A stretch of DNA of 64,000 nucleotides from Escherichia coli. GTDB taxonomy: Bacteria; Pseudomonadota; Gammaproteobacteria; Enterobacterales; Enterobacteriaceae. Under the pieces are notes generated by a model that worked only from the letters and a program-made list of their open reading frames with translations, had not been told where the DNA came from and ran no database searches. This document shows, one piece after another, positions 5,584 to 16,690 of the stretch. Each line of letters begins with the position of its first letter. Positions within the stretch are counted from its first letter, which is position 1. The position numbers and the translations under genes were made by a program. The stretch lies in the NCBI RefSeq assembly GCF_030013595.1, contig NZ_CP122768.1. The stretch is one strand, 5' to 3'.

Positions 5584-8406
5584 ATGACGGCAAAGTACAT
5601 CAGGGACTGGCAACAACCGCGCCACGCAGTGGGGCGTGAAGGAACGGGGATCCCCGCTCCTGAATCCGCGCTTTCCTCCTGGCTGGATGCCTACCGGGCA
5701 GAGAACGAGCGCCGCCAGGAAATGGCTGATGCGGCGTTCTCCGCCACGCCGCTGGGCAACCTGATTAATAAAAGCCTGGACGCACAGGAAAAACAGGACA
5801 AAACCATCACACTGGCAGGAGACGCCAGAAAACAGGCACGCGGCGCGGTGGATGAAGCCATGGCCTCGCTGCGCCTGCTGCCGTCCTATCTGCGCGATCC
5901 GCTTATTCGCCACCTCTCCTTCCTGCGCAAAAAACAGGAAGCCGATCGTCAGAAAGGAAAAAACGCCAGGCAGGCAGAACGCTATGCGCGTGGGACCCTG
6001 CGCAAAATATTCGAACGTCTGGAGCGCACCGATCACCGCTGGCTGACACCGGGTTATCGCTCCCTTGCCGGACGCGAACGCCTGGACGATTTGCTTTACC
6101 TGCCGCAGCTCAACAAACACCAGATACAGACGCTGGCCACCATGACGGCGGCGATGTTCAGCAGCACCTTCGAAAAACTCTGCGATGGCTTTGGCGCGAC
6201 CGATGGCGAACTGACCATGGATGTAACGCTGAAGGCGTATCAGATGCTGGCCCGCATGGCGTTACACCTGCACATCATGCCTCCACATTATGACGCACTG
6301 ACAACAGACAAAGACCGGAGGAACGAACCGGACACGGAGCTGCTGCCGGGCGCAATCCTTCGCCTGACCTGTGCGGAATGGTGGAAACGCAAACTGTGGC
6401 TGTTACGTTGCGAGTGGCGGGAAGAACAACTCCGCGCCGCCTGTCTGGTTTCCAGAAAAACATCACCCTATCTGAGCCAGGACGCGTTAAGCGAGTTTCG
6501 CGCACACCGCGAGAAAACACGCGATTTCCTGAAAAGTTTCATGCTGGAAAATGAAGACGGGTTCACGATTGATCTCGAGACGGTGTATTACGCGGGAGTA
6601 AGTAACCCGGTTCACCGTAAGGCAGAAATGATGGCCACCATGAAGGGGCTGGAACTTCTGGCCGAAGCCCGTGGCGACAGAGCGGTGTTTCTGACTGTCA
6701 CCTGCCCGTCAAAATACCACGCAACAACGGAGAACGGTCATCCGAATCCCAAATGGAACGGGGCCACCATGCGCGACTCCAGCGATTACCTGGTTAACAC
6801 GTTTTTTGCGACGGTCCGCAAAAAACTGAACCGCGACGGTCTTCGCTGGTATGGCATCCGCACGGTGGAGCCTCACCATGACGGCACTGTGCACTGGCAT
6901 ATGATGGTCTTTGCACATCCGGACGAGATTGAAACCATCGTGTCCCACGTCTGCGATATTGCCATTCAGGAAGACCGCCACGAGCTGGGCGATGATATTA
7001 CTCCGCGTTTTAAAGCGGAGTACGTCGACGGCTCAAAAGGCACGCCAACCAGCTACATCGCCACCTACATCGGAAAGAACCTGGACAGCCGCGCCGTGGA
7101 TGGCATCGCCCCGAAAACGGGCAAGCCACGCGTTGACCACGAAACCGGAAAATCAATGGCCGAGAGCGTGGAGCGCGCCATCGGCTGGGCGCGCCTTCAC
7201 CGGGTCCGCCAGTTCCAGTTCTTTGGCATCCCCTCCCGTCAGGTGTGGCGTGAACTGCGCCGCCTTGCCAGCCAGATGGCACGCAACCCGGAAGGCCCGC
7301 AACGGCTGAAGGATGACGCAATGGATGCAGTGCTCGCTGCCGCTGATGCCGGGTGTTTTGCCTCCTACATTGAAAAACAGGGCGGCGTACTTGTTCCACG
7401 CCAGGACTACCTGATTCGCACCGCCTACGACCTCGCAGATGAGCTGAACGATTACGGCGAACAGAGCGTACAGATTTACGGGATCTGGTCACCACTCATC
7501 GGGGAGTCTTCCCGTGTGTGCACACATCCGGATAACTGGAAGCTGGTAAGACGTAAACCGGAAGCGGAAGACAGCGCCCGCGAAAATGGTTTTGACCTTC
7601 AGGGCGGCCCTGCCGCCCCTTGGACTCGTGGCAATAACTGTCCCCGTGTACAGGAAACGGACAACAACGGGACAGAACAGCCGGAAGAACGGCCAGCACC
7701 GTGGCCGCAGCTCCCTGACGGCGTTGAAGTGAACGAATGGATGCGCTCACTGAAACGGCACGAACGCCGGGCGCTGATGCGTTCGCTTCGTGACAAACAG
7801 GCAAAAAACAGCAGTGATGAAATGCAGAGCTGGACACAGAGCCGCAAACAGCAGCGGCCTTTGCCTGATAACCACGAATTACTCGCTAAAGAATGGCGGG
7901 AGTCTGCTGAATCTCTCGGCCTGCATATCGGTGAACAACAGATGCAGCACCTGTTACGGGGCGGCAGTCTGTACGTTGACGGCAGCATCATTGCACCGCA
8001 GGGATTTGAAATTGTACGCAAACCGGATACCCGCCCGGACAGCCGAATCACGCAGCTCTGGCAGCGCCTGAGCCGTAATCATGGCGTAAGCAGCACGGAG
8101 ATCCGCCATAACCCGGTCGCCAGCTATCTGGCACAGCTGGGGGCATCAGACCCTGAAGCCGCCGCACGCCTGGCATCCACACTTCAGCAGGACCAGAACA
8201 CCATGAAAACACCCGTTACCGTGCTTTCTGACATGCTGCGCGCCATCCGCGACGCAGAGCACGCACAGAGAATCAGTGAAACCACTGAACGCGCCAGCCG
8301 CAAAGCAGACCTGCTGCGGGGTGGCCTGACCAGTGGAAACAAAAAACAGACAGAAACGGGACTCACGAATCCCGCAAATGAGCAAAAAACGCGCAGCGAT
8401 ATATGA
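5584..8406 (+). CDS. A: Replication initiation endonuclease (P2 gpA family, rolling-circle)
   Basis: 940-aa ORF with the HUH-type region (GTVHWHMMVFAHPDE) and conserved P2 position between early genes and the Q/P packaging genes. Confidence 0.85.
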   Translation: MTAKYIRDWQQPRHAVGREGTGIPAPESALSSWLDAYRAENERRQEMADAAFSATPLGNLINKSLDAQEKQDKTITLAGDARKQARGAVDEAMASLRLLPSYLRDPLIRHLSFLRKKQEADRQKGKNARQAERYARGTLRKIFERLERTDHRWLTPGYRSLAGRERLDDLLYLPQLNKHQIQTLATMTAAMFSSTFEKLCDGFGATDGELTMDVTLKAYQMLARMALHLHIMPPHYDALTTDKDRRNEPDTELLPGAILRLTCAEWWKRKLWLLRCEWREEQLRAACLVSRKTSPYLSQDALSEFRAHREKTRDFLKSFMLENEDGFTIDLETVYYAGVSNPVHRKAEMMATMKGLELLAEARGDRAVFLTVTCPSKYHATTENGHPNPKWNGATMRDSSDYLVNTFFATVRKKLNRDGLRWYGIRTVEPHHDGTVHWHMMVFAHPDEIETIVSHVCDIAIQEDRHELGDDITPRFKAEYVDGSKGTPTSYIATYIGKNLDSRAVDGIAPKTGKPRVDHETGKSMAESVERAIGWARLHRVRQFQFFGIPSRQVWRELRRLASQMARNPEGPQRLKDDAMDAVLAAADAGCFASYIEKQGGVLVPRQDYLIRTAYDLADELNDYGEQSVQIYGIWSPLIGESSRVCTHPDNWKLVRRKPEAEDSARENGFDLQGGPAAPWTRGNNCPRVQETDNNGTEQPEERPAPWPQLPDGVEVNEWMRSLKRHERRALMRSLRDKQAKNSSDEMQSWTQSRKQQRPLPDNHELLAKEWRESAESLGLHIGEQQMQHLLRGGSLYVDGSIIAPQGFEIVRKPDTRPDSRITQLWQRLSRNHGVSSTEIRHNPVASYLAQLGASDPEAAARLASTLQQDQNTMKTPVTVLSDMLRAIRDAEHAQRISETTERASRKADLLRGGLTSGNKKQTETGLTNPANEQKTRSDI

Positions 8407-9446: not shown

Positions 9447-9758
9447 ATGACGACACCAACCAGACGGATAAGTTTCTATCTGAAGCCCGCCGCCGTCAAG
9501 AACGAAGGCGAAGCATGCGCCTGGCTGGACAGCCTTACACCAGAAGCCCGCAAAAGCGGCCAACGTGTGGCTTTTCTGGCCGGGCTGGCACTTCTGAAAA
9601 TGAATCCGGCAGAGGCTTACCGACTGGCTGCATGGGCTGACGATGAGGCGTTATCAGTGACACAAACCAGGACAGAACGCCCCGCGTCACAGCCAGTACC
9701 AACCACACAGATAACCAGTCGGATGGCCGGAAATATCAGGGCGTTATTTCCCGAATAA
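9447..9758 (+). CDS. parR: ParR/StbB-like centromere-binding protein
   Basis: Starts 4 bp after parM; resembles R1 ParR from memory (FYLKP, AALTAGLAL-type helix, RALFPE C-terminus). Confidence 0.6.
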   Translation: MTTPTRRISFYLKPAAVKNEGEACAWLDSLTPEARKSGQRVAFLAGLALLKMNPAEAYRLAAWADDEALSVTQTRTERPASQPVPTTQITSRMAGNIRALFPE

Positions 9759-9821
9759 CACAACATCAGGGCGCATCCGCCCTGATGACTTTAATCCGGG
9801 AACATAAACAAGGGGGACACA

Positions 9822-10154
9822 ATGCAACACATTGACAGAGAAAAAGCGCAGCGACTGATTGAGCGGATGGAAGCGCTGGCGAAAGAAGAAAATGTCAACA
9901 TCCAAAAAATAGCTGAATGTGGCCAGATAGTTCTTCGTCGTGAAAAAGACCTCAAACAACTGATGTCTGGCGAAACCAGCAAAACATGGACTTCAGGCGA
10001 GGAGACGATTTATTGCAGCTTCTGCAATAAATCTCAGTACGAAGTCACAAAGGTGATTGCCGGACCGTCTGTTTACATCTGCAATGAGTGCGTGGATTTG
10101 TGCAATGAAATTATCAGGAGAGAAGTGACAGACAAAAAGGGAAAAAACGCATGA
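9822..10154 (+). CDS. Small protein with a C-terminal ClpX-type C4 zinc-binding domain
   Basis: [39 protein letters not shown] closely parallels the ClpX N-terminal zinc-binding domain ([40 protein letters not shown]); no AAA+ module follows. Confidence 0.7.
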
Positions 10155-10489
10155 ACAGAAAACAAAAACAAGAGTTGAAATACTTTTTACGTAAAGAAAT
10201 TGCCAGGCTTGAAGATGCAGAATCACAATCATCAGAAATTCCGTTCGGAATGGATATCAACGACGCCCGTATGCTCCAGGCATACCGCATAGCTCAGGCT
10301 GCACTACAGGCAAAACCGTCAGATGGACTGGTTAGAGCAGTACGATTCTATGAACTGGTAAAGCGTGAGAATCCGCCAGCCGAAACCGGAGCATGGAAAG
10401 ACGCTGTTGACTGGGTACTCAAAGAGGCTTGTCAGGTTGTAAACACTGGCATCAAAGGAGACCTAGCCCAGCCTGCATCAAAGCTATAG
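10151..10489 (+). CDS. Hypothetical protein translationally coupled to the ClpX-ZBD gene
   Basis: ATGA overlap with upstream stop; 112 aa, no recognised domain. Confidence 0.5.
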
Positions 10490-10498
10490 AAATGAGCC

Positions 10499-10527
10499 AA
10501 AACGCCCTCTTCCAGGGCGTTTATTTC
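10499..10527 (+). terminator. Rho-independent terminator after the accessory genes
   Basis: GC stem AACGCCCT/AGGGCGTT followed by a T-rich tract. Confidence 0.55.
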
Positions 10528-10980
10528 AATGCACAATAGTGCACAAATTTGCACAATTTTTTTGAACGAATTTTTGCCCTTCCGGCCCGCGTGACAGTTG
10601 GATCCGTCAAGGATCCGTGCGTGCACAAAAAAACGCGCTTTTTCTGCGCGCAGGTGACGGGGGAACAGCCCGCGTTTCAGGGGGTAAATAGCATTCCCTG
10701 AACGATGTCGCAGAGATACAACAGAATGGCTGTATTTCTCACGCTGAGCGTGAAAAAGATGTGAGGGCTTTTGATTTGATGGGGTGAAAGGTAAGGCCGT
10801 CAAAATCGCACTGAGGCGGCGAGAACATACAGTCAACGCGGTAGGATTGCGTAAGAGTCTGACCGTCGATGGTGGCGATAAACTGGAAGGCGTCGTGAAA
10901 TTATCTGATTGATACAGGAGCTGGAGAGTCGGGGCATAAATTTTTTATGCCCCGGCGAAGCAGCAGACAAGCGAAGCGCG

Positions 10981-12027
10981 TCAGGATGTGGGCTGGGTAT
11001 CTAACAGTGCGTAAGGGTTAAAGCGGATCACCTCTTCGCCAAGCCAGTCATTGATGTGCTTCATGGCCTCCATGACGGGCATCAGCTCGTTAATTGCGTA
11101 AACCCGCGCGGCCTTCTCCACATCACCAAACGCACTTTTTTCACCCGGCATCGCTCCCATCAGTTGCGGCGGAACGCGGTGCGCAGCCAGCACATCATCA
11201 CGGGATGCCGCCTTAACATTCATGAACTCATCCTTTGCGGTGATCTGCTGGAACGGCAAAATTTGCACACCTTCTTTGCCCCCGTTGGGCGCATGAATGA
11301 GCACGTTTTTAAATGCACCACCACCACGCGCACCCTGTAACGTTTCTTTCAGGGAGTCCATGCTTTCGCGGTTTACCTGCGCTGCACCGATGTAGATGAT
11401 GCACCCGGCGTGGGATCCGTTGTCGTAATACAGTTTTCTGAACATGTCCGCCGAATGAGACAGGCTGGCCGAGAGTAATGCGCCAAGATATTCCGGCATG
11501 CCGTAAATTTCCTGGTTAATGTCAGGATTCATCAGGTGACACACTTTGCCTGGGCGAAACTGAAACGCATCCTTGCCATCCTGCACATACCACCATGATT
11601 CAAGATCGCTTCCGCGTCGCATGTATTTCGCCAGGGCGTGCCGTAATTTAAGCGGTTCGCCGAGCATATTGCTTCGAAGCTCAAGGAATGCGTTACCGAA
11701 CACAAACCAGTCCAGCGCCAGCGCCGAGAAATCCTGCCGGGAAAGCAGCGGGTGCGGAATATAGCAGCCGAGCAATACATTGCGCTTAAAGTAAAGCGCA
11801 GACTGATGCCAGGACGTTTGCCGGGCAGCTCTTGCCAGACCGTACCAGTCTACCGGGGTTTCATACCACCGCCCGTTATCAGCACAGTACATATTGTCCA
11901 GCAGGTCATGCCCGGTCAGGCGATAAGGACCATCAAATGTGAATGCACTGAGCGATGATTCTTTCCTGAGCGCATCAGCGAGATCAATGCGTGAACTCAT
12001 GCGCACTTTTTTATTTTTTCTGCTCAT
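10981..12027 (-). CDS. Q: Portal protein (P2 gpQ)
   Basis: 348-aa ORF matching P2 Q in size and position, divergent from O. Confidence 0.85.
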   Translation of the reverse strand: MSRKNKKVRMSSRIDLADALRKESSLSAFTFDGPYRLTGHDLLDNMYCADNGRWYETPVDWYGLARAARQTSWHQSALYFKRNVLLGCYIPHPLLSRQDFSALALDWFVFGNAFLELRSNMLGEPLKLRHALAKYMRRGSDLESWWYVQDGKDAFQFRPGKVCHLMNPDINQEIYGMPEYLGALLSASLSHSADMFRKLYYDNGSHAGCIIYIGAAQVNRESMDSLKETLQGARGGGAFKNVLIHAPNGGKEGVQILPFQQITAKDEFMNVKAASRDDVLAAHRVPPQLMGAMPGEKSAFGDVEKAARVYAINELMPVMEAMKHINDWLGEEVIRFNPYALLDTQPTS

Positions 12028-13778
12028 CAGAACTCCATAACCGTGAAACGCTCGTTTTCTCCTTCGCCGCCAATTGGTTCGTTAATGACAGCAAGCATGG
12101 TTGCCCACGCAAGGTCGCCGTGGCTGATCCCCCTCGCGCGGTCCGTTTCGTAAGTGATAAAGCCGCCCGGTGTTTTCACCTTACGCACGGCGTTAAAGGC
12201 CGCGACCAGCTCGCGTTCGGCGCGATCGTATTCCCACCGTCCGGCACGCATTATTTGCAGCATTTTCAGTACCAGCGACCGTTTGGATGACAGCGTGAAG
12301 GTGTACGGAATAGCAGCAGGGAAAAACCGCTTCACTATCTGATAAACAGCCTCCCCGTTCCCGCCCGTCACATCAATGCCGATGTGTTCCACGTTGTAGC
12401 GACACGTGAACTCTTCAATGACTCTGGCCTGTTCTTCAAACTCCAGCCCCTGAACGCGTCGCGTCTCCACCGTTCGAAAACGGCCACCAGGAACAGCCGG
12501 AGGAACCACCACGGACACAGCGCCGCTGTCGCCGTTGCCACTGCTGCCGTTTGCGTCATACCCAATCCATACCGGACGATTCCCCATCGGGCGGGGAGCA
12601 AAAGGTTTCCAGTCTTTCCAGTCGTCGTATCCGTCAACACCGCAGCCAATCAGGATATTCAGGTTAAATGCCGATTCCCCTTCGCGAACAAACTCACACA
12701 TATAGAGATTGAGGAACTCGTCTTCGGTGTTTTCATCACGGATTTCGTCAATATCGGTGTGTTTCCAGCCGTGATTAACCACATCTTCCAGCGTGACAAT
12801 TTGCCGCCACGTCCGGTCAGGGCAGATAAGCCCGTTATGCAGCGTTTTCCAGTCCACAGAAAAACGCTGGCGTTTATGCGCGGCCTTTTTCTCGTTCCAG
12901 CGGTCGCCGTTCCAGTAGACGTATGCCTCGTGCGTTTCGGTTGATGGCGTGGAGAAGTAGGTGCGCCGCAGTCCGCTGAGGGTTGCCATAGCGCCAGCCA
13001 CCTTGCGCAGTTCAGCAAAGCGACTGACCCAGAAAAATTCATCAAAATAAAAATTGCCTGTGTAGGACTGTGCCGTCGCAGCAGAAGTACCGAGAAAATG
13101 CAGTTCTGCGCCGTTGGAGAGGATGATTTTATCGCCCCCTTTCAGCTCCACATCAACTTCAGCCGCGGCCTTCTGAATAATGCTTTTAAACTGGAACGCC
13201 TGACGACGCGACGCAGACAAAAAAATCTGGTTACGCTGGTAAGGTTGTGCCACATCGTCACGCAGCGCCATCAGCAGTGCTTCCTGTGCAAAATACCAGG
13301 TCGCCCCAATCTGTCGGGATTTCAGGATCATCCTGTTACGTATCCCGGCTTCACTGCAAAGGGTCAGGGAGTCAAACCAGCCCCGCTGATGCCACTCCAG
13401 CCTGCTGATGATTTTTTCCCGCAGTGCGGCAATCTGCTCCGGCGTGAAATGATTTTTAAGTTTTTTCGCCCGGCCTTTCTTTCCTGTGGCCGTCGCATCC
13501 GGCTGGCCATCATGCAGTTTTTTAAGCTGCCGGGTCAGCAGGTCTATTTCCTTAAAGTCACCACCTGTTTTATTCTGTTTTTCAGTAAGCTGGATGAGGC
13601 GCGCATCGATGGACTGCGTGACACGCTGCACGGGTGGCGTTTCATCCCACTGGTCGCGTTTTTTCCACGCATAAATCGTGTTCGGGTTTATTCCCATCAG
13701 ACGTGATATTTCTGCGGGCGGATAACCCTGCCAGTAAAGTTGCCGCGCACGCTGGCGCACAAAAGCGTCCTGAATCAT
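12027..13778 (-). CDS. P: Terminase large (ATPase) subunit (P2 gpP)
   Basis: 583-aa ORF directly upstream of Q on the same strand; P2 P family. Confidence 0.85.
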   Translation of the reverse strand: MIQDAFVRQRARQLYWQGYPPAEISRLMGINPNTIYAWKKRDQWDETPPVQRVTQSIDARLIQLTEKQNKTGGDFKEIDLLTRQLKKLHDGQPDATATGKKGRAKKLKNHFTPEQIAALREKIISRLEWHQRGWFDSLTLCSEAGIRNRMILKSRQIGATWYFAQEALLMALRDDVAQPYQRNQIFLSASRRQAFQFKSIIQKAAAEVDVELKGGDKIILSNGAELHFLGTSAATAQSYTGNFYFDEFFWVSRFAELRKVAGAMATLSGLRRTYFSTPSTETHEAYVYWNGDRWNEKKAAHKRQRFSVDWKTLHNGLICPDRTWRQIVTLEDVVNHGWKHTDIDEIRDENTEDEFLNLYMCEFVREGESAFNLNILIGCGVDGYDDWKDWKPFAPRPMGNRPVWIGYDANGSSGNGDSGAVSVVVPPAVPGGRFRTVETRRVQGLEFEEQARVIEEFTCRYNVEHIGIDVTGGNGEAVYQIVKRFFPAAIPYTFTLSSKRSLVLKMLQIMRAGRWEYDRAERELVAAFNAVRKVKTPGGFITYETDRARGISHGDLAWATMLAVINEPIGGEGENERFTVMEF

Positions 13779-15889: not shown

Positions 15890-16690
15890 ATGATTACTCC
15901 TGCACAGCAACACTGGCAGAACGTGATGGCACAGCGCGCAGGCCGGGCGAATGAAGGCGTGGACCACGCCGCGCGTACCGCGCATGAAGAGGTGCTGTAT
16001 CGTCTGCGTCTGGCACAGGCCCGGCTTAAGGGCGTACAGGCCAGAAGCGCGAAAGCCGCCATCAAAAAAGAGTTATTGCCGGACTTTTCCGGCTGGATTG
16101 AGGGAACGCTGGAGGCTGACGGCGGGCAGCAGGATGAAGTGATTGCCACGCTGATGGTCTGGGCGATTGACTGCGGCGATCTTCCGCTGGCGCTGCGTAT
16201 TGGTGCATATGTGGTCCGTCACAACCTCATCATGCCGGATAACTTTGGACGTACTGCTGCCACGGTACTGACCGAAGAAATCTGTAATCCGGTACTGACG
16301 CAGGCCGGGACGGATGCCGACGCGGATTTGTCCGCCTTTATCGAACCACTGGACACCCTCCGGGAGATTGTCACCGACCAGGACATGCCGGACGAAGTGC
16401 GCGCCAAATTATGCAAAGCGTGCGCCTTTGCCCGCCGTGGCCTGAGTGATACGGACAGCATGGCCCTGTCACTGAAGCTGCTGCGCGAAGCAATGCACCT
16501 GAACCCGAACGCAGGTGTGAAACGCGAGATTGCAACCCTTTCCCGCGCCCTGAAAAAAGCCGATTCCGCAGCCGCACCAGAAGACGCCAGCGCACAGCAG
16601 ACGCAGGACGAAAGCAGCAAAAGTAAAAAGACAACGCGGAAGCCTGCAACACGAAAAACCACCGCGACGCAGAAGGCGAAGCGCGGTTAA
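15890..16690 (+). CDS. M: Terminase small/endonuclease subunit (P2 gpM)
   Basis: Conserved KKELLP, DMPDEVRAKL, AGVKREI blocks of P2 M. Confidence 0.85.
   Translation: MITPAQQHWQNVMAQRAGRANEGVDHAARTAHEEVLYRLRLAQARLKGVQARSAKAAIKKELLPDFSGWIEGTLEADGGQQDEVIATLMVWAIDCGDLPLALRIGAYVVRHNLIMPDNFGRTAATVLTEEICNPVLTQAGTDADADLSAFIEPLDTLREIVTDQDMPDEVRAKLCKACAFARRGLSDTDSMALSLKLLREAMHLNPNAGVKREIATLSRALKKADSAAAPEDASAQQTQDESSKSKKTTRKPATRKTTATQKAKRG

Follow-up and report, generated by a model that had tools for sequence, protein, structure and literature searches.

A probable P2-family cos site and a separate portal-side hairpin element in the gap between cargo and portal genes of a P88-like Escherichia coli prophage

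The gap between the accessory (“cargo”) genes and the portal gene of a P88-like prophage of Escherichia coli probably contains a cos site of the P2 family (positions 10530-10689) and, apart from it, a hairpin element on the portal side. The prophage, which belongs to the genus Xuanwuvirus of the family Peduoviridae, lies in a stretch of 64,000 nucleotides of E. coli DNA that was analysed as a whole (“the window”) and to which all positions refer, unless stated otherwise. The 160-bp cos block, the putative packaging signal of the element, is homologous to the cos regions of the phages P2, 186 and SEN5 and of the satellite P4. Thereby, a packaging signal is located for one of the commonest prophage types of E. 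coli; a match to the cos/portal gap region is present in 1200 of 5426 complete E. coli genomes (22%). The assignment corrects gene calls that put hypothetical proteins across the cos site, marks the boundary of a cargo hotspot at position 10530, and provides a defined piece of DNA for the construction of P88-type cosmids or transducing particles as well as for the prediction of mobilisable satellites. The P88-like cos is a diverged member of the well-known P2-family type; it is nothing out of the ordinary for this known group of phages and leaves the understanding of P2-family packaging unchanged.

The identity of the element follows the nucleotide matches of the gap region and the arrangement of its genes. 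Used as a query, positions 10430-11030 match Escherichia phage P88 at 96% identity and some 15 further phage records at 92-97%. The gene order, comprising a gpA-like replication gene (5584-8406), the cargo genes downstream of it with parM and small plus-strand genes up to 10489, the gap, and a minus-strand portal gene, is the same as in P2 and 186. The portal protein, a gpQ homologue (10981-12027, minus strand; Pfam Phage_portal, E 4e-18), shares about 45% identity with P2-type portals and 49.5% with the portal of 186. It is followed by the large terminase subunit, a gpP homologue with an N-terminal helix-turn-helix domain (12027-13778, minus strand; Pfam Terminase_5, Terminase_6N and Terminase_6C), beyond which the scaffold, capsid and small terminase genes are found on the plus strand. 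The small terminase subunit is a gpM homologue (15890-16690, plus strand; Pfam Phage_term_smal, E 6e-37; PHROG 74). Hence, by their Pfam matches, the cognate gpM, gpP and gpQ genes are all present in the same element. The first-pass annotation of this DNA had drawn on the location of cos in P2, between the accessory genes and Q, and the same layout is found here.

The gap measures 491 bp and extends from the stop codon of the last plus-strand accessory gene (10489) to the stop codon of the minus-strand portal gene (10981). The noncoding interval of 10530-10980 proposed earlier is borne out, with 10490-10980 as its true limits, and the earlier start at 10530 is the point where homology among relatives begins. 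Among 119 IMG/VR relatives, which were gathered by a 17-nt pattern, homology to the window sets in at 10523-10531 in 87 cases, and to the left of this position the cargo differs from relative to relative (diversity 0.65). This onset fits the published cargo hotspot, which is directly adjacent to cos between gpA and gpQ (PMC9122126).

The homology of the left part of the gap to known cos regions was detected with a hidden Markov model built from the cos junctions of P2, 186 and SEN5, in which the right and left ends were joined and the range from -150 to +80 around the cohesive end was covered. A search of both strands of the 64-kb window with nhmmer returned one significant match, located at 10530-10685 (E 1.8e-8), with the next one at an E value of 0.26. 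The first-pass annotation, which had named an alignment to the P2 and 186 cos regions as the check on its cos/packaging candidate, was thus right in that the gap holds a cos region at a P2-like position; however, the inverted repeat that it had pointed out (10930-10954) is about 270 bp away and is not the cos.

Comparisons with close and distant relatives delimit the block further. The inducible phage P88, which has been induced from E. coli K88 (PMC5285337), carries it with 100% identity. Neither the P88 paper nor a literature search on the Xuanwuvirus cos yielded a description of the P88-type cos. Phage phiT5282H, a Novemvirus, is 73% identical over 10523-10674, with the rest of the gap not being conserved; in this phage and in the prophage ABWA45, homology to the window is limited to approximately 10523-10685 and the inverted repeat is absent. 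The parts conserved with these two distant elements are the direct repeats and the core of the block.

On the cargo side, the block starts with three TGCACAA direct repeats at 10-bp spacing on the plus strand (10530, 10540 and 10550; together spanning 10530-10556), followed by a T7 run (10557-10563); these repeats are kept in phiT5282H and ABWA45. Next comes a variable spacer (diversity 0.068), which in the window carries the direct repeat GGATCCGT with two self-complementary GGATCC sites (10600-10618), while other lineages have different G+C-rich dyads at this position. A fourth repeat, TGCAC, followed by A7 (10622-10633, plus strand), is located at -31 from the core; its counterpart in P2, 186 and P4 is TGCATTAAAA at -29. 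Taken together, the TGCA[CT] offsets are -123/-113/-103/-31 from GGTGACGG in the window and -123 (or -124)/-111/-101/-29 from the cohesive end in P2, 186 and P4. Because P4 shares almost nothing with P2 except the cos region (PMC9594776), these repeats are very likely part of the packaging signal. We infer that the TGCACAA repeats would serve as terminase recognition sites, in analogy to lambda cosB.

Between the fourth repeat and the core, a terminator scan reported the minus-strand hairpin GCGCGC-AGAAAAA-GCGCGT, followed by T7 (10633-10651). It is the sole canonical intrinsic-terminator-like site in the gap and abuts the cos core, and its fold alone is not exceptional (z -1.2). An analogous hairpin and TTTTAA are located next to the core in P2, 186 and P4. 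The hairpin is weak or absent in SEN5 and in the Klebsiella phage Kp4877-2; thus, it is not claimed as a conserved structure.

The cos core (10651-10673) has the conserved GCGCGCA as its left flank, followed by the predicted cohesive-end segment GGTGACGGGGGAACAGCCC, which would occupy 10653-10671 if 19 nt in length. Position 1 of the P2 cos aligns to 10653 with nhmmer and to 10651 with MAFFT, so that the register of the core is uncertain by about 2 nt. The core sequence GCAGGTGACGGGGGAACAGCCC is identical in the window, phiT5282H, ABWA45 and a satellite-like element of E. coli mip270_05 (see below), and cores bridging the P2 and P88 types are found in Kp4877-2 (GCGCGCA and then GGCGAGGCGGGGGAGCAAG) and SEN5 (GGCGAGGCGGGGGAACGAG). 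With a diversity of 0.017 over 10638-10674, compared to about 0.07 in the adjoining noncoding spacers, the core varies less than any other part of the gap's left half. Ungapped, the 19-mer GGTGACGGGGGAACAGCCC agrees with the P2 sequence GGCGAGGCGGGGAAAGCAC at 13 of 19 positions, and chance sites in the window reach 14-15 of 19; accordingly, direct matching of the P2, 186, SEN5 or Kp4877-2 19-mers, with or without their flanks, does not return the true site as the top match. Since the 13/19 match is not above chance, the core was identified solely via the surrounding architecture. For the P2 cohesive-end sequence, which the first-pass annotation could not recognise, a putative diverged version is present at about 10653-10671.

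By homology with P2 and 186, the gpM/gpP terminase would bind the TGCACAA repeat array and nick the two strands at staggered positions (top strand near 10653, bottom strand near 10671, ±2 nt), which would leave 5' cohesive ends of approximately 19 nt. For P2, 186 and the satellite P4, 19-nt 5' cohesive ends are reported (Ziermann & Calendar 1990, as cited in PMC9594776 and PMC9122126).

The correspondence with the cos regions of P2, 186 and P4 extends from the location, with the cargo genes on one side and the 3' end of the portal gene on the other, to the order of the individual parts: three TGCA(Y) repeats some 100-125 bp left of the core, a fourth some 30 bp left of it with a subsequent A-run, and a short hairpin abutting a G+C-rich core with the pattern GG(C/T)GA...CGGGG..AA..AGC. 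Also shared are the cognate gpM and gpP terminase genes and the occurrence of the site in a satellite. In contrast, GGTGACGGGGGAACAGCCC replaces GGCGAGGCGGGGAAAGCAC in the core of the window, and its distance from the repeats differs by 2 nt; the repeats have the form TGCACAA and follow each other at exactly 10 bp; the spacer sequence shows no relationship; and the cleavage positions in the window are predicted ones. The cos of phage lambda (cosQ-cosN-cosB) follows the logic of a nicking site with repeated terminase-binding elements on one side. The cos block resembles it in this general logic of a nicking site plus flanking repeats; however, there is no sequence relationship, the small terminase belongs to another family, and the overhangs are 19 nt (P2-type) as opposed to 12 nt.

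The cos block also occurs outside P88-like phages, which is a more interesting by-product of this analysis than the cos itself. The satellite-like element of E. coli mip270_05 (NZ_CM132658.1, 4413219-4427384) shares only 10530-10689 with the window, at 82% identity and with an identical core; within the element, the block is found at positions 7001-7160. Its 3-kb cos-to-capsid segment is present in 57 of 5426 complete E. coli genomes. The mip270_05 genome gives one match to the cos region of the window and, thus, seems to be devoid of a P88-like prophage. In a literature search, no paper on the element was found. As further observations, the element, whose neighbour is hpt, encodes an HTH regulator, an Icd-like protein, an 889-aa toprim primase, a tyrosine integrase, an Ogr/Delta zinc-finger protein, MazEF and a 236-aa protein without a family match, as well as a 423-aa capsid protein of the P2 family with 35% identity to gpN of the window and an N-terminal extension of about 118 aa. 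As a tentative extension, and one about which we are rather doubtful, the P88-type cos (three TGCACAA repeats, then GGTGACGGGGGAACAG) might constitute a separate packaging-specificity class within the P2 family which has its own pirate, namely a non-P4-like satellite with its own capsid and a copied 160-bp cos block. If true, the gap would determine which satellites a P88-like phage can mobilise.

The second element of the gap is the perfect inverted repeat CGGGGCATAAA-TTT-TTTATGCCCCG, the arms of which (10930-10940 and 10944-10954) are 100% complementary. Described in the first-pass annotation as a 10-bp repeat, it is real and slightly longer, with 11-nt arms and a 3-nt spacer. It is unique in the window even if three mismatches are allowed, with none expected in shuffled sequences. 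In total, the window contains five different perfect inverted repeats with a length of 10 bp or more and a spacer of up to 10 nt (10 nested entries versus a mean of 0.8 in simulated sequences); hence, the repeat at 10930-10954 is not due to chance, yet it is not unusual. It begins 18 nt past the stop codon of a 42-aa open reading frame (ORF) on the plus strand and is located 27 nt past the portal stop codon. Folded as RNA, the minus strand gives -22.2 kcal/mol (z -4.0) and the plus strand -28.9 kcal/mol (z -6.4). Among 94 distinct relatives, the repeat is intact in 90 and nearly invariant (diversity 0.003), as a consequence of which there are no compensatory changes. Because it is outside both the cos-homology block (10530-10685) and the block shared with the satellite (10530-10689), it is not needed for terminase recognition; on sequence grounds, the inverted repeat is not part of cos.

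Between portal and cos, P2 and 186 carry tQ (160-181) and tW (164-187), respectively, which are annotated as putative rho-independent terminators. Like these, the hairpin of the window is a strong one (an 11-bp perfect stem downstream of the portal stop codon), positioned a few to a few tens of nucleotides past that stop in the portal-cos interval. However, its upper stem is A/T-rich and a U-tract 3' of the stem is present on neither strand, the tails being ACUCUCCAGC (minus) and GCGAAGCAGC (plus); moreover, it was not reported by the terminator scan that detects tQ of P2, and it has a conserved 26-nt flank. From its position and conservation, the inverted repeat is most likely the end-of-operon 3' hairpin of the leftward P-Q late transcript, a reading which we hold with moderate confidence. 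Such a hairpin would terminate or stabilise RNA and would also end any rightward transcript coming from the spacer. In relatives of the EC958 type, a further gene separates the inverted repeat from the portal gene, so that there the hairpin is not strictly a portal terminator.

Among the alternatives, the one that fares best, unlikely though we consider it, takes the repeat together with its flank (10930-10980) as a DNA-level element or a regulatory RNA, e.g., a protein-binding dyad or a recombination anchor for a second cargo slot. The missing U-tract would agree with this, as would the 26-nt stretch leading from the repeat to the portal stop codon (10955-10980), which is as conserved as the stem (diversity 0.006), a degree of conservation that a plain terminator does not require, and the insertion of phrog_5091 genes on either side of the repeat in the E. 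coli strains B771 and EC958. On the other hand, no known motif was recognised in the repeat and its flank, and an Rfam search over 9500-12000 returned no family match. Furthermore, hairpins directly past the portal gene occur family-wide with unrelated sequences (P2, 186, SEN5 and Klebsiella phages), which argues for a structural role of the RNA rather than a sequence-specific one.

The flank itself contains two GCGAAGC heptamers, 16 nt apart (10955-10961 and 10971-10977), and its diversity compares with about 0.07 nearby. The oligonucleotide d(GCGAAGC) is known to form a DNA mini-hairpin of unusual stability. On the portal side of cos, a second, small cargo slot is observed, with insertion points at about 10987 and at 10908-10918. 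In ST131-type relatives, such as E. coli EC958, a gene of the family phrog_5091, which is of unknown function, is inserted between the repeat and the portal gene; in E. coli B771, such a gene lies immediately to the left of the repeat, and PGAP joins it there to the start of the 42-aa ORF.

The gap contains several candidate ORFs, which were translated in an alignment of eight relatives. The 134-aa minus-strand ORF, regarded as unconvincing in the first-pass annotation, is present (10432-10836) but interrupted by stop codons or frameshifts in six of the eight relatives, and the ORF resembling P88 gp21, the 50-aa ORF and the 45-aa minus-strand ORF are likewise broken in several of them. The 42-aa ORF (10784-10912, plus strand) appears as a hypothetical protein in some records, and a reading in which it or the gp21-like ORF is a real gene, with the inverted repeat as its terminator, is quite improbable. 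In its favour, the 42-aa ORF is found among the annotations of P88 and phage P88_4B11 and among the PGAP gene calls of some genomes; 84 of 94 distinct relatives have it intact; and its stop codon is at a short distance from the repeat, as given above. However, it is disrupted by frameshifts or stop codons in the remaining 10 of these relatives, and over these 94 distinct sequences, taken from IMG/VR and the window, its diversity per codon position amounts to 0.081/0.080/0.064, that is, the third positions are not more diverse than the others. The product has no match in Pfam or PHROG, a scan of the gap for sigma-70 promoters returned none, and the start codon is a GTG without a spaced Shine-Dalgarno sequence. 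Lacking a third-position excess and being disrupted in relatives, the 42-aa ORF was therefore treated as noncoding, and it is probably not a real gene. The short G+C palindromes noted earlier in this interval are present (GGATCC twice, GTGCAC twice, and GCGCGC), with a mild enrichment of such 6-mers (15.5 per kb versus 10.5 per kb window-wide).

Concerning the physical ends of the phage DNA, the only virion-derived relative is phage P88_4B11 (LR595891), the first base of whose record corresponds to position 10575 of the window. Where the right edge of the core is predicted, this record shows a 5-nt deletion (10669-10673) and the exchange A10664G; the deletion is found in none of about 115 other relatives. 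In the record of P2_4C9 (LR595883), which is from the same study, the junction is short of 10 nt of the P2 19-mer, which makes artefacts at physical DNA ends plausible for these data. Should the deletion in P88_4B11 be such an end artefact, it would constitute indirect evidence for ends at the core. Conversely, the start of the P88_4B11 record could be taken to mean that the physical ends are at 10574/10575 and that the G+C-rich core is something else; this is very unlikely. The P2_4C9 record has its last base within the P2 cos 19-mer and its first at P2 position 20, which implies that at least some records from that study are delimited by physical ends. However, the P88_4B11 junction is seamless in comparison with prophage sequences, with no missing or duplicated bases, as would be the case for an arbitrary start on a circular assembly, and the study (Mathieu et al. 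2020) states no method for setting termini. In addition, the sequence at 10574/10575, an AT-rich GAACGAATTTT/TGCCC, resembles no cohesive end of the Peduoviridae, and profile homology puts the nick sites of P2 and 186 at 10651-10671. In view of the seamless junction and the lack of a terminus method in the paper, the record start was rejected as evidence for physical ends. The same applies to the locus ends of the IMG/VR relatives as a proxy for virion ends; these are scattered (10682, 10687, 10704 and others), derive mostly from prophage predictions, and are not necessarily contig ends.

That the inverted repeat at 10930-10954 would itself be the terminase recognition or cleavage site is extremely unlikely. 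The repeat is the most conspicuous symmetric element of the gap and almost invariant, and partial symmetry is a property of cleavage sites like lambda cosN. However, 260-280 bp separate it from the block with homology to the cos junctions of P2, 186 and SEN5; it is not common to the satellite carrying the same cos core, is missing from phiT5282H and ABWA45, which keep the core, and occupies the position of tQ/tW. Another candidate, the look-alike GAGGCGGCGAGAACATAC at 10814-10831, is at a P2-like distance from the portal stop codon and was discarded, as it is outside the profile match, not conserved in phiT5282H, and part of the variable spacer.

At the cargo end of the gap, a terminator-like hairpin on the plus strand, AAACGCCCT / AGGGCGTTT followed by TATTT (10499-10523; RNA fold -14.3 kcal/mol, z -3.8), closes the plus-strand accessory block. 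It belongs to the variable cargo side and is outside cos; the nucleotide diversity on this side is 0.65, and relatives with other cargo differ there. The last two cargo genes before cos are located at 9822-10154 and 10151-10489. The product of the former, 110 aa in length, contains a C4 zinc finger of the ClpX type (Pfam zf-C4_ClpX, E 8e-18); for this protein, the P88 RefSeq label “carboxylate--amine ligase” looks like a mis-annotation. The product of the latter is a 112-aa protein which matches solely PHROGs of unknown function. Two further perfect inverted repeats are found in this region, one with 12-bp arms within the zinc-finger ORF (GATTTATTGCAG...CTGCAATAAATC; 10007-10033) and one with 10-bp arms just ahead of it (CATCAGGGCG...CGCCCTGATG; 9764-9787).
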